DNA of 64,000 nt from an uncultured Alphaproteobacteria bacterium. GTDB taxonomy: Bacteria > Pseudomonadota > Alphaproteobacteria > Rhizobiales > Aestuariivirgaceae. The position numbers and the translations under genes were made by a program. Below the pieces are notes generated by a model. It saw only the letters and a list, made by a program, of their open reading frames with translations, searched no databases and was not told where the DNA came from. The stretch's first letter is position 1. Each line of letters begins with the position of its first letter. The stretch lies in assembly GCA_963831645.1 (NCBI GenBank), contig CAWHQZ010000028.1:627035-691034 (forward strand), in the 5' to 3' direction. Below are positions 39,139 to 55,005 of this stretch, piece by piece.

Positions 39139-39214
39139 GCCCAGGTAGCTCAGTTGGTAGAGCAGCGGACTGAAAATCCGCGTGTCGGTGGTTCAATTCC
39201 GCCCCTGGGCACCA
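39139..39214 (+). tRNA. tRNA-Phe (GAA), CCA encoded
   Basis: GCCCAGGTAGCTCAGTTGGTAGAGCAGCGGACTGAAAATCCGCGTGTCGGTGGTTCAATTCCGCCCCTGGGCACCA. Cloverleaf with 7-bp acceptor stem and GAA anticodon in a CTGAAAA loop. Confidence 0.9.
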
Positions 39215-39267
39215 TCATTTCCACCCGCGTCCCGTCGGGCGAGAAGGCTGCGGAATTGACCCGCCTC

Positions 39268-39783
39268 TCATGCCCTTCGAGTCGCAATCGCTCGCGAAGC
39301 TGGGGGAGGACAGCACCTGGGCTCTCCAGCCCTCGACAAAGAGGAGCAGTTCAAGCATGGCTCAGGTCCTCCACTCCGCCGGCAACCTCCTGCGGATGGC
39401 CGAGAGCGCGTGGCCGAGGAAGCGACTCGACGTTCGGCACGGGCTGCTTGGTAGTGGCCATCTTTGCCAAGGATTTCGGCCATTCCCTTCAACGGAGTTG
39501 CGAAGTCCGGAACCGGTATCAGCGCCAGGAGCAGTCCCGCGATCCAGTAAATGTGGTTGTGCGTGAACAGCGAGAGGAGCCCCAAAACACCTACGATCTG
39601 CAATTGCACTTTGCTGGTCCCGTGCGCCATATGTTCGGGAAGGGCGTGAAGCCGGAAATACAGGATCCCCACCATGAGGATGGTATCGGCGAGGAAGACC
39701 ATCATGACGTTTAGCAGTACGTCGGTTTCTCCCGGAGCCGTTATGAAACCCGGCAAGTGATGCGTCGCTGCGCGGGATCGCAT
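39268..39783 (-). CDS. hypothetical small membrane protein (3 predicted TM helices); C-terminal region probably frame-shifted
   Basis: MMVFLADTILMVGILYFRL..LQIVGVLGLLSLF..YWIAGLLLALIPV hydrophobic segments. The low-complexity tail is unlikely to be native. Confidence 0.35.
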   Translation of the reverse strand: MRSRAATHHLPGFITAPGETDVLLNVMMVFLADTILMVGILYFRLHALPEHMAHGTSKVQLQIVGVLGLLSLFTHNHIYWIAGLLLALIPVPDFATPLKGMAEILGKDGHYQAARAERRVASSATRSRPSAGGCRRSGGPEPCLNCSSLSRAGEPRCCPPPASRAIATRRA

Positions 39784-39796
39784 GCTCGAGCCTCCC

Positions 39797-40161
39797 GACC
39801 GGAATTCTGGTATTCGCCCGGCGTGAAGGCCAATGTGATCTTATTCGACAAGAGAGAGGGCCGTGCCGAAGCCTGGACGGACAAGCTCTGGGTCTATGAT
39901 CTGCGCACTAACCAGCACTTTACGCTGAAGCAGAAGCCGATCAGGCGCGGCGATTTCGACGAGTTCATCGCCTGCTACAAGCCGGGCCGCACGCACGAAC
40001 GTGCCGAGACCTGGAGCGGGGCCAACCCCGAAGGCCGCTGGCGCTGCTTCGACTATGACGAGCTTCTTAAACGCGACAAGCTGAGCCTCGATCTGTTCTG
40101 GATCAAGGACAAGAGCCTGACCGATTACCGACGCCCTGCTCGAGAGAAAACTCGAGAATAA
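39797..40161 (+). pseudogene. hsdM: type I R-M methyltransferase (HsdM) 3' fragment, paralogous remnant
   Basis: ...RPEFWYSPGVKANVILFDKREG..LWVYDLRTNQHFTLKQKP..DFDEFIACYKPGRTHERAETW..NPEGRWRCFDYDELLKRDKLSLDLFWIKDKSLTD matches the HsdM C-terminal domain. No start codon or N-terminal part. Confidence 0.6.
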
Positions 40162-40163
40162 GA

Positions 40164-52028: not shown

Positions 52029-53110
52029 GTGTGGTCCGCAATGGTGCGAATGCCAGTCTTTGATCCCATCGAATACCTTGTTTCTCGTCGTTACCCGGCT
52101 TGGAAAATCGAGCTTCCAAATTTTCACAGCTTGGCTGAAGCAGAATCGATCGGAAGGCGAAGAAAGTCGCGCGAGAAAGCACTCGCCTATGAGCAGGAAC
52201 TTCGGTGCAAAACGCCGGAGGAGATCAACGACCTAGTGAAAGCCGAGAAGGCGGCCGAGGTTGAACAACTGCGGCGAAAACAAGAAGCTGAGGAAAATGC
52301 CCGCTTCTTCAATCAACCCGCGGCAAGGGCCGATTTCACGCACTGGGGCAGGCTTTCCTACTGGACGCTCGATGAAGCGGTAGCGCTGTCCTTTGGCCGG
52401 GCGCCCGAGAGCGTGAACTGGAAGGTAATCGAAGCCATCGAAGCCTACACAAACATGTCTCCTTTCGCGTTTCAGTACAACCGCCGGCGGCAGCTAGCAC
52501 TGAGGGCGAAGGCATCTTCCGAGCTTTACGATCCTGTAAGGCCCGGTTTCTTCATAGCCTGGGCCAAGAGGCTCGACTGGGACATTAAGCCAAGCCTGGA
52601 AGCTGTGGTCGCGGTGCGCGGAGGGCAGATAGGAGATTGGAAGACGGCTTATGAGAACGAGAGGGATGCTCATGCGAAGACCATGGAATGGGCGAAGTCA
52701 AAAATTGGCGAGGTAATGGATTCCGCAAAGCAACATCAGGCGGATGCTTTCGAGTCGGCGAAGCAGTCCCAAGCGGAAGCTTTCGAGATCGGGCGCCAAG
52801 TTGTGGCGGAGCGCGACGCCGAAATAGCGCAAGCTGCAGGAGGTCCTGCGCGCGGCGGAGGCGCGAAAAATCGTACAGGAGAATCAGATTGCGAAGGTGC
52901 CGTCACCGGATGCAAGTTCGCGCGAGCGGGAAAGCATGCTTCGCCTTATTATAGGGATGGCGATTAAAGGTTACACCTATGACCCTGCTGCGGCAAAGAA
53001 CCGGCCGGTCAAAGAGATTGCTGATGACCTCCAGTTCTCGGTATCGGTTTGGACGAAGATACCGTCCGTAAATATCTCCAGGAGGCCAAGGGTCTCATTC
53101 CTCGCGAAAC
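52029..53110 (+). CDS. hypothetical island protein; frame break near 52880
   Basis: Charged/coiled N-terminal part. C-terminus ...MLRLIIGMAIKGYTYDPAAAKNRPVKEIADDLQ... is in a second frame. Confidence 0.35.
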
Positions 53111-53221
53111 CGAATAACGGGTGCTGAAACCGAACTCGGTTTCAGTCAAACCGAATACGGCCACCGAGTCGGCTGCACTTCCTAGAACGGCTTCATCCTC
53201 AACTGGATGGAGTCGCACCCC

Positions 53222-53426
53222 GATGAATACCGCTGAATTGCCGAGTACCGGCTTCCTTCGCCAGCCTTCCATCATCGCCCCGAATGGACCAATCCCGGTT
53301 AGCCGCTCCACTTGGTGGGCAGGCGTCAAGGAAGGCCGCTACCCCAAGCCGGTGAAGCTTGGCCCTCGAATTACCGCTTGGCGCGTGGAAGACATCCGCG
53401 CCCTGATCGAGAAGGGCGCCGCCTGA
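53222..53426 (+). CDS. alpA: AlpA-family phage/island transcriptional regulator (excisionase-like HTH)
   Basis: MNTAELPSTGFLRQPSIIAPNGPIPVSRSTWWAGVKEGRYPKPVKLGPRITAWRVEDIRALIE is a canonical AlpA motif. Confidence 0.75.
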
Positions 53427-53427
53427 C

Positions 53428-53946
53428 ATGACCCGTCGCCGCGCGTCGGCCCGGCGGGTCAAGAAGCACTTGAGCTACACGGCAGAAGAGGCGGCGGACG
53501 TGCTGGGCGTCCATCGCCATACCGTGCGGCGCTGGATCACCTCCAAGGCCCTTCCGGCGCTGACCGACAAGAGACCGCATCTGATCCTCGGCCGCGACCT
53601 TCAGGCCTTCCTGTTCGCTCCCTCACCCGGCCGGGCAAGGCTGAAGCCGGGCGAATTCTACTGCGTCAAGTGCCGCCTTCCGAAACGGCCGGCACTCGGC
53701 ATGGCGGACTACATGCCGATCAACGACCGCATCTGCAATCTGCGGGGCATCTGCCCCGACTGCGAAATCCTGATTTACCGCCGCGTCGCCCTGGACAAAC
53801 TTGACGCAGTTTCCGGCGATCTGGAGATAACGCGCCCGCCCACGGAGCAACACCTATTAGAGCGCTCCCGCCCCTCCATAAATGTTGACTTTGGAGAGAC
53901 CCGACATGACCCGATCAAAGCACTGCGTCGAAAACAAGCGGATTAA
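53428..53946 (+). CDS. HTH-domain protein with C-terminal Cys-rich (zinc-ribbon-like) segment
   Basis: TAEEAADVLGVHRHTVRRWI HTH, then CVKCRLP...CPDCEI. Its 3' end overlaps the integrase start. Confidence 0.45.
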   Translation: MTRRRASARRVKKHLSYTAEEAADVLGVHRHTVRRWITSKALPALTDKRPHLILGRDLQAFLFAPSPGRARLKPGEFYCVKCRLPKRPALGMADYMPINDRICNLRGICPDCEILIYRRVALDKLDAVSGDLEITRPPTEQHLLERSRPSINVDFGETRHDPIKALRRKQAD

Positions 53947-55005
53947 GCGCCGTTACCTGCAATGGCTGAAGGACGCTAAGGGATACGGCATCGCCTCCAC
54001 CGACATGGCCGCGGCAGCTATCGCCCGATTCGAAGGCTATACCGGTCACCGCGACTTCAGGCGTTTCCATGTGGAGCAGGCGCGCGGTTTCAAGGCCCAT
54101 CTCACCGGCAAGGCGAAGGGTGCCCGATCCGGCGAACCCCTGAGCAGGGCGACGGTGGCATCCACCCTGAGACAGCTCAAGGCCTTCTTCACATGGCTTG
54201 CCGATCAGCCGGGCTACCGGTCCGCCATCCGCTATGCGGACGCGGCCTATTTCACTCCAGCGAGCCAGGACGAGCGGATCGCCAGCGGCGTGCGCTTCAG
54301 GCCGATACCTGAGCCGGAGGAGATCGAGAAAGTCCTGCGCGCCATGCCGGATGACACCGAAATTGCCAAGCGGGACAGCGCCCTCATCGCCTTCATCTTC
54401 CTGACCGGGGCGCGCGACCGGGCGGTTGCATCGCTGAAGCTGAAGCATCTGGACATCGAAACTGGCAAGGTTTTTCAAGATGCCCGCGAAGTCAAAACTA
54501 AGCGCGCCAAGACCTTCGTGACGCAGTTCTTCCCCGTTGGCGAACTGCCCCCCACCATAGTCAGGGAATGGGTAGACTTCCTGAAAACCAAGGGCTTCGG
54601 TCCTGATGACCCTCTGTTCCCGGCGACCGAAGTGGTGCTTCATGGCATGGTGCAGTCCGCGACCGTCGGACTTTCCCGCGGCACTGGCAGACGACGACGC
54701 CGATCCGCAAAATCTTCAGGACAGCCTTCGCTCGCGCTGGGCTTCCCTACTTCAATCCTCACAGCTTCCGGTCAACCCTCGCCCGGCTTGGCGAGAGGCT
54801 TTGTGGCCCCGGGGAGGAATGGAAGGCGTGGAGCCAGAATCTTGGCCACACCGATATGATGACGACATTCTCAAGCTACGGGCACGTGCCCGAGCACCGG
54901 CAATGCGACATCATCACCAATATCGGGCAGCGGAAAAAGGAGCCGGACGATCTCGCATCGGTCATTGCCAGCGCCATTCGCAGCTCGGGCATAAAGGCGG
55001 CGTGA
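53906..55005 (+). CDS. int: tyrosine site-specific integrase; at least one frame break (about 54640-54700)
   Basis: N-terminal SAM-like domain in frame 2. Catalytic C-terminus FNPHSFRSTLARLGE...NLGHTDMMTTFSSYGHV (R..H..R..Y) is in frame 1 and ends at 55005. Confidence 0.7.

Follow-up and report, generated by a model that had tools for sequence, protein, structure and literature searches.

A variable region beside tRNA-Phe as a probable mosaic whose right end would derive from a tRNA-Thr-type integrative element, now immobilised

When accessory-type genes begin directly 3' of a tRNA gene and a tyrosine integrase lies at their far end, does the whole segment form a single island inserted at that tRNA? 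The question is raised by a 64,000-nucleotide stretch of contig CAWHQZ010000028.1 from an uncultured alphaproteobacterium of the Aestuariivirgaceae (the whole analysed stretch is called the window below), in which a first-pass annotation had taken positions 39139-55005 for one tRNA-Phe-associated island with a distal integrase and an AlpA regulator. We arrived at a different interpretation. The segment 39215-55290 is probably a mosaic variable region, the rightmost 3.3 kb of which represents the immobilised remnant of a tRNA-Thr-type integrative element. The region would then comprise at least four pieces with separate histories (blocks A-D) and not one tRNA-Phe island:

39215-46004: block A, in which a small membrane-protein open reading frame (ORF) and a scrambled hsdM that lacks hsdS and hsdR partners are followed by genes for an SPFH protein and a transglutaminase-like protein
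46005-51321: block B, a gene block that is 93-94% identical in another genome, where it has other neighbours
51322-52040: block C, debris of two truncated genes
52041-55290: block D, which represents the far portion of a small integrative element

Block D carries the recombination module. The loci compared with it include L002 (a JGI contig), L003 (a contig of a Nordella metagenome-assembled genome, MAG) and L025 (a Ruegeria conchae plasmid). Its features, including the putative right attachment site (attR), are as follows:

52041-53117, plus strand: ORF312, the first module gene, with no known domain and two frameshifts near its 3' end
53223-53426, plus strand: AlpA-family small regulator or recombination directionality factor-like protein, 67 aa (Pfam PF05930)
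53428-53946, plus strand: helix-turn-helix (HTH) protein of 172 aa with an HTH_17/excisionase-family DNA-binding domain and a DUF5679-like zinc ribbon (Pfam; TIGR01764; PHROG 66)
53906-55005, plus strand: Int2, a Xer-like tyrosine recombinase, 366 aa when frameshift-corrected (PF00589, E 2e-10)
55198-55222, plus strand: two arm-type-like direct repeats (CGGTATATTTGACGGTATATTTGAA; CGGTAT...TTTGAA), homologous to the repeats before the attR of L003
55270-55290, plus strand: putative attR core TCGAGTCACGCATGCGCACCA, which reproduces the 3' end of tRNA-Thr(CGU) and matches the L003 attR at 20 of 21 positions

Int2 possesses the catalytic residues of its family (LTGARD at 54401, HSFR at 54760, LGH at 54838 and SYGH at 54868), and these motifs correspond to the invariant columns R170, H287, R290, H316 and Y326 of alignment A3. 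The frame is broken once, in a run of CGGCGG, by a 1-nt deletion at 54680/54681 of a kind often seen in the core genes of this assembly. Int2 has more than 7800 homologues, whose length is very uniform at about 365 aa. The XerC, XerD and XerA models gave weak scores only (36-38 bits against equivalog cut-offs of 220-335). Among sequenced phages there was no close relative but merely remote Streptococcus satellite integrases, PDB sequences gave no match, and a metagenome scan with Int2 returned only 4 short loci.

The four genes are collinear with those of the relatives, so that a ~300-aa ORF, AlpA, the HTH_17 protein and Int2 are all present at 52041-55005. Identities to L002 were 50% for ORF312, 85% for AlpA, 77% for the HTH_17 protein and 85% for Int2, while those to L003 were 40%, 81%, 54% and 65%, respectively; at the nucleotide level, 53049-55006 is 84% identical to L002. 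ORF312 had no match in Pfam, NCBIfam or PHROG and only one weak Legionella match among plasmids, and it aligns from residue 1 with the ORFs that take the equivalent place in L002 and L003. The HTH_17/zinc-ribbon protein is the constant upstream partner of Int2 by synteny, and from this invariant adjacency we infer that it serves as the DNA-binding partner of the recombinase. In L002, a 5'-truncated second Int2 (residues 81-366; 9980-10840) follows in tandem directly after the full-length copy.

What a complete member of this family looks like can be seen in the relatives. In L002, L003 and L025, whose Int2 proteins are 85%, 65% and 44% identical to that of the window, the order of genes is a P4-type integrase (domains Arm-DNA-bind_3, Phage_int_M and Phage_integrase), one or two ORFs, AlpA, HTH and Int2. 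A P4-type integrase lies at most 10 kb from Int2 in 8 of the 22 Int2 loci, including L004, L006, L007, L013 and L015, and Int2 is never the tRNA-adjacent integrase in the related elements. In L003, tRNA-Thr(CGT) is located 190 nt upstream of the P4-type integrase, and a perfect 17-nt copy of the tRNA T-loop/acceptor segment (TTCGAGTCACGCAGGCG) is found 9.3 kb away as attR, after a cargo of type III restriction-modification genes. In L015, the 3' two-thirds of tRNA-Thr(CGT) and paired arm repeats precede a P4-type integrase 49% identical to that of L003, and a 17-nt repeat in the register of L003 (TTCGAATCCCTCTTGCG) closes the element 9.7 kb away. The AlpA-HTH-Int2 module of L015 stands at the attR end in the orientation opposite to L003; when L003 6713-16127 is compared with L015 (reverse complement of 2639-12347), both module and cargo are oppositely oriented relative to the P4-type integrase, which is compatible with a possible role of Int2 in inversion or reshuffling. 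The Ruegeria element L025 is a version with almost no cargo, in which we found no tRNA and no direct repeat.

A geometry control was provided by 80 loci with a P4-type integrase from IMG/VR. A tRNA was present within the locus in 20 of the 80, always 150-300 nt upstream and on the same strand, and the Int2 module occurred in only one of the 80 loci, the L015 contig. Taken together, the intact layout is tRNA-Thr(CGU), P4-type integrase, ~300-aa ORF, AlpA, HTH_17/zinc-ribbon protein, Int2, optional cargo and attR. As the sequence anatomy of L003 and L015 shows, the P4-type integrase is the tRNA-specific integrase of the intact relatives, recombining in the T-loop/acceptor segment of tRNA-Thr and leaving a direct repeat of 17-21 nt. 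AlpA would be a regulator or directionality factor of the P4-type integrase, by analogy with CP4-57-like/CP4So-like, ROD21 and IntY-like islands (PMC5148205, PMC8844411, PMC12595487).

The end of such an element can be recognised in the window. Positions 55198-55290 are 73% identical to the attR region of L003 over 93 nt (E 3e-9), a CAATATGTT block is conserved between the two attR regions, and the homology ends right after CACCA. When the 3' end of the L003 tRNA-Thr was aligned at 55270-55290, the score was 33, whereas the maximum of the null was 28 and none of its 400 control windows reached 33. In register, the window core agrees with the 17-nt direct repeats found in L003 and in L015. The core starts 265 nt past the Int2 stop codon with no cargo between. 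The limit of 55005 given earlier is correct for the integrase, but mobile-element-derived sequence continues to 55290. A search of viral contigs with the attR-variant pattern gave no match. The 190-nt spacer from the Int2 stop to the arm repeats (55007-55197) showed no similarity to L002, L003 or the other compared loci.

The opposite end is a different matter. When the P4-type integrases of L002, L003 and L004 were used as tblastn queries, nothing in the window was better than E 0.36. Because this integrase is absent, the window holds a remnant and not a complete member of the family. Neither a tRNA-Thr gene nor a tRNA-Thr body is present in the 64-kb window, so there is no left attachment site (attL) inside an intact tRNA-Thr. 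The place where both would be expected is occupied by the debris of block C:

51359-51508, minus strand: C-terminal fragment of a TPR_12 protein, ~50 aa (Pfam profile positions 31-75 of 77)
51566-51901, plus strand: N-terminal third of a beta-lactamase-family (serine hydrolase) gene (Pfam profile positions 18-122 of 329)

The beta-lactamase-family gene breaks off about 40-140 nt before the start of the element module. We propose, as the simplest explanation, that both the tRNA-Thr/attL end and the P4-type integrase were lost through a deletion or rearrangement, of which block C would be the scar. With these two parts gone, the remnant could no longer excise by its original pathway. The tRNA-Thr(CGU) of the host would be expected to have a 3' end related to TCGAGTCACGCAKGCG(G)CACCA, and integration followed by deletion or relocation would predict an intact host tRNA-Thr with a TTCGAGTCACGCAGGCGGCACCA-like 3' end.

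Block B indicates a separate history for the middle of the region. Its genes are:

46005-49036: ORFs without a Pfam match
Within block B, minus strand: ORF of 315 aa in the relative
Within block B: TIGR04222/DUF2207_C-like membrane protein (Pfam/NCBIfam)
Within block B: UCP032817-like ORF, broken by a 1.65-kb deletion at ~48780
49029-51321: adenylate/guanylate cyclase-SBP-VWA gene (Pfam)

By blastn, the ENA metagenome contig L026 shares only 46005-48782 and 48779-51321 with the window, at 93-94% nucleotide identity, and the counterpart of block B in L026 is 4820-11778. On each side the block ends exactly at the stop codon of an outward-facing gene, and its ends show no repeats. L026 contains no tRNA. 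In L026 the block is flanked by a sugar ABC transporter on one side and by TPR, DUF4915 and hemolysin-type genes on the other, none with a counterpart in the window; this context also occurs on a 263-kb contig. Relative to L026, the window lacks 1.65 kb at ~48780 (an M48 peptidase and a 267-aa ORF), and the edges of the deletion share GCTCTGCT microhomology. The ORF at 48095-49036 is thus a deletion chimera, which may explain one of the unusual domain architectures noticed in the first-pass annotation. Another such architecture was dissolved: the cyclase, SBP_bac_11 and VWA pieces belong to one gene (758 aa in the relative P0367), split by assembly frameshifts. Relatives of the cyclase protein with at least 90% identity are found on several other contigs.

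The genes next to tRNA-Phe (tRNA gene included) are listed below, with the G+C content at third codon positions (GC3) of the SPFH gene:

39139-39214, plus strand: tRNA-Phe(GAA) (ARAGORN; Rfam tRNA 72.1 bits)
39268-39783, minus strand: small membrane-protein ORF with a weak TauE-like match (E 0.018)
39757-40161, plus strand: C-terminal body of HsdM, displaced and inverted (translation GVKANVILFDK...LDLFWIKDKSL)
40164-41267, minus strand: hsdM remnant with HsdM_N, the N-terminal two-thirds of N6_Mtase and a C-terminal tail (Pfam)
41569-43404, plus strand: SPFH/Band 7 (flotillin-like) protein of 611 aa, block A cargo (Pfam; GC3 0.71)
43749-46073, plus strand: final gene of block A, for a Transglut_core protein (Pfam), whose reading frame switches near 45204

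In the minus-strand hsdM, the N6_Mtase profile ends at position 215 of 311, and the absent piece is the one found on the plus strand at 39757-40161. The order of the pieces (39757-41267) is unexplained by a simple inversion. The scrambled hsdM represents real decay in block A. No hsdS or hsdR domain was detected by Pfam in the neighbouring ORFs, so the locus does not hold an intact type I restriction-modification system. Part of the membrane ORF (39456-39759) is ~71% identical at the nucleotide level to Sinorhizobium meliloti pSymA and to about 90 other rhizobial megaplasmids; the matching stretch of pSymA is unannotated. The proteins of the variable region, including the SPFH protein, are cluster singletons at 90% identity. 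As the flank control ORF446 is also a singleton, this status is uninformative on synteny.

Several points weigh against the interpretation of the region as a mosaic with a tRNA-Thr-type remnant. Firstly, GC3 is uniformly below that of core genes across 41.5-55 kb (0.59-0.77), which would also fit one large foreign segment. Secondly, L026 may belong to a close relative, or it may have only block B in common with the window through transfer. Thirdly, the putative attR draws mainly on one homologous attR, that of L003, together with the register of L015, and the tRNA-Thr used for comparison is that of the relatives and not the host's own. Fourthly, the order of events, with integration first and deletion afterwards, is inferred. 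Finally, a misjoin at 51.3-52.0 kb may have arisen in this error-prone assembly.

Could the two ends instead have been brought together by recombination between two islands? An island at tRNA-Phe and another at tRNA-Thr might have exchanged parts by homologous recombination, or by integrase-mediated exchange as in tripartite integrative and conjugative elements (ICEs), so that the attL side of the former was fused to the attR side of the latter and the partner halves lie elsewhere in the genome. The mismatched ends (tRNA-Phe on the left, a tRNA-Thr-type attR on the right) are what such a fusion would give, and the window has no integrase for either tRNA. In a sister genome of at least 90% identity, the flanks 38062-38913 and 57018-57686 are on separate contigs (218,472 and 195,845 bp), so either that assembly breaks in the region or the flanks are not adjacent there. 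The opposite orientation of module and cargo in L003 and L015 also shows that elements of this kind rearrange. But the break is not at an attachment site: it has truncated host-type genes on one side and the beginning of ORF312 on the other, whereas site-specific exchange would leave clean att junctions. In addition, no island-type sequence or arm sites were seen beside tRNA-Phe, and Pfam and NCBIfam scans of the window proteins revealed no conjugation or mobilisation genes. A hybrid of two islands is therefore considered unlikely.

Assembly error has to be weighed as well, since the sequence is indel-prone over the whole window, as had been remarked earlier. A codon-usage frame tracker found same-strand frame switches throughout, densest in the housekeeping sugar-transport operon. 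Over 57036-59752, the relative's contig L024 is 79% identical at the nucleotide level and has intact SorC and SBP genes, whereas the same two genes of the window are each spread over at least three frames, giving ~2 frameshifts per kb in core genes. Therefore the frameshifts are assembly noise and not decay, and after the L024 comparison and the frame tracker we rejected them as evidence of pseudogenisation; real decay is shown instead by the truncated genes at 51.36-51.90 kb and the scrambled hsdM. Such an indel rate even in core genes is typical of an unpolished long-read MAG, and the source is a MAG-like contig of 691 kb. If metagenomic reads of related strains had been collapsed or joined into a chimera, both the mosaic and the missing parts could be explained, the more so as block B is on other contigs in several related assemblies and the flanks are on separate contigs in the sister assembly. 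However, the junctions fall at stop codons or show microhomology, like real recombination products, and the scrambling of hsdM and the gene truncations are local and specific. The attR is at the expected distance and in the expected orientation from Int2, and chimeric joins would not yield such a coherent element end. A misassembly is accordingly an improbable source of the whole pattern.

The interpretation that had been given first, a single island from 39215 to about 55005 at the tRNA-Phe 3' end with a distal repeat that is decayed or masked by indels, fares no better. The tRNA-Phe was confirmed at 39139-39214 by ARAGORN and Rfam, and by ARAGORN it is the sole tRNA of the 64-kb window. The region does begin directly 3' of it, a classical hotspot for islands, its content is of the accessory type and includes restriction-modification debris, and islands with integrase and AlpA at opposite ends are known (PMC12595487). 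Composition is also in favour, GC3 being below that of core genes across 41.5-55 kb: it is 0.82-0.89 in core genes, 0.68-0.77 in most genes between 41.5 and 51 kb and 0.59 in ORF312, while the hsdM pieces beside the tRNA are host-like at 0.86-0.95. Tetranucleotide distance within the variable region peaks only at 49.5-55.5 kb, a level matched elsewhere in the window.

A repeat of tRNA-Phe was sought in several ways. Neither the tRNA nor the 45 nt that follow it contains an exact k-mer of at least 14 nt that recurs within the window, and blastn-short together with a repeat search of the window returned only chance-level matches to the tRNA 3' end. Indel-tolerant Smith-Waterman alignment of the last 30 nt against 54.9-57.0 kb scored 16, under the null mean of 18.2 obtained with 400 control windows. 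In 54.9-55.4 kb, where the first-pass annotation had suggested looking for a match with indels allowed, none rose above chance, and its own failure to find a direct repeat was upheld by these searches. Up to E 1, Rfam gave no tRNA-like sequence in 38-58 kb besides tRNA-Phe itself, and no partial tRNA either. An inverted T-arm-like match at 39245-39264 (14/16), 40 nt past tRNA-Phe, was rejected, as 3.7% of random windows reach the same. No integrase lies beside tRNA-Phe either, the first 2 kb being the membrane ORF and the scrambled hsdM.

With no tRNA-adjacent integrase and no tRNA-Phe repeat even when indels are allowed, a tRNA-Thr-type attR at the distal end, an Int2 that is never tRNA-adjacent in related elements, block B in a tRNA-free context elsewhere and truncated genes midway through the supposed island, a single tRNA-Phe island is decidedly unlikely. 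What stands of the earlier description is the accessory-type, partly decayed genes with a real recombination module (AlpA, excisionase-family HTH and tyrosine recombinase), and its gene list from hsdM through the integrase ending at 55005 was confirmed in full by Pfam, NCBIfam and direct reading. The integrase appears distal to the tRNA because it is unrelated to tRNA-Phe. The tRNA merely borders the variable region on its left, and nothing points to its use as an attachment site. It is highly improbable that the segment, with tRNA-Phe at one end and a tRNA-Thr-type attR at the other, is a piece of a multipartite element whose cognate P4-type integrases and partner att sites are located elsewhere in the genome, and in which HTH_17-Int2 acts as a second recombination system that inverts or reshuffles an internal segment. 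Such an arrangement would explain why module and cargo are oppositely oriented in L003 and L015, and the element could be re-assembled before it excises.

The flanks of the variable region are as follows:

30500-38913: left flank, XrtA/PEP-CTERM exosortase locus with a TIGR03015-type ATPase, frameshift-split TPR proteins and large ORFs without a Pfam match
56262-56471, minus strand: cspA (CSD domain), followed by a HAD hydrolase, a SorC-type regulator, a sugar ABC transporter and an SDR gene

The return to housekeeping genes past the integrase, as described before, was confirmed by this right-hand series. The nearest comparable relatives are 65-80% identical. A relative's contig has EpsH/EpsI beside the same TIGR03015-type ATPase, and against genome representatives the flanking ATPase had only a 40% Marinobacterium match. 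The left-flank relatives P0002 and P0003 are 79-80% identical, with different tRNA-side genes in P0003; on the right, the contigs of both P0243 and P0245 start at the HAD gene. Elsewhere, the stretch of the window that deviates most in tetranucleotide composition and GC lies at 13.5-16.5 kb (GC 0.705), and 17741-21265 (3.5 kb) and 24064-25278 have no host-like codon usage in any frame.

A mosaic that ends in a degraded tRNA-Thr-type element thus remains the preferred explanation of 39215-55290. To find a degraded, tRNA-targeting integrative element in a variable region is nothing unusual. The result is mainly a correction: what looked like a tRNA-Phe island with its integrase in an odd place becomes a decayed patchwork, and both the distal integrase and the absent repeat are explained by a tRNA-Thr-type element minus its own integrase and tRNA end. 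Of wider interest is the recurrent, uncharacterised four-gene module itself (~300-aa ORF, AlpA, HTH_17/zinc-ribbon protein and Xer-like recombinase), which is carried within small tRNA islands that have a P4-type integrase in Alphaproteobacteria, in some cases alongside defence cargo. It should be noteworthy for specialists in mobile elements, although the incomplete copy of the window adds little mechanistic information.

Among known systems, the closest comparison set comprises the CP4-57/CP4So cryptic prophages, the ROD21-like islands and the Pseudomonas IntY-AlpA tmRNA islands (PMC5148205, PMC8844411, PMC12595487). Like these P4-type/AlpA islands, L003 and L015 have an integrase directly 3' of a tRNA with arm-type repeats between, a distal 17-nt repeat that matches the 3' end of the tRNA, and an AlpA gene. 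They are likewise small, without transfer genes and with defence-type cargo (type III restriction-modification in L003), and they bear an element-specific conserved sequence beside the distal repeat. The window copy differs in lacking the P4-type integrase and the tRNA/attL end, and the target is tRNA-Thr(CGU). The Int2 family further adds the pair of HTH_17/zinc-ribbon protein and Xer-like recombinase, as well as the ~300-aa ORF; an ORF300-AlpA-HTH_17-Int2 module inside P4-integrase islands was not described in the literature searched.

Two kinds of symbiosis element also invite comparison. ICEMlSymR7A is a symbiosis island at tRNA-Phe, with a 17-bp phe-tRNA direct repeat and conjugation genes. 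As in ICEMlSymR7A, the accessory region of the window begins right after tRNA-Phe in an alphaproteobacterium-like genome, but the tRNA-adjacent integrase, the 17-bp repeat and the conjugation genes are all missing, the region is just 16 kb, and its far-end recombination module has a different target. In the tripartite and polypartite ICEs of Mesorhizobium, regions are flanked by non-matching att sites. The segment of the window resembles them in that its two ends relate to two different tRNA attachment sites, and differs in that its internal break falls outside any att site and neither cognate integrases nor conjugation genes are present.

As for the recombinase, Int2 shares with the Xer and phage-type recombinases of PF00589 the catalytic R, H-x-x-R, H and Y. 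Unlike Xer recombinases, it falls far under every Xer equivalog cut-off and is always accompanied by its own upstream HTH_17 gene.

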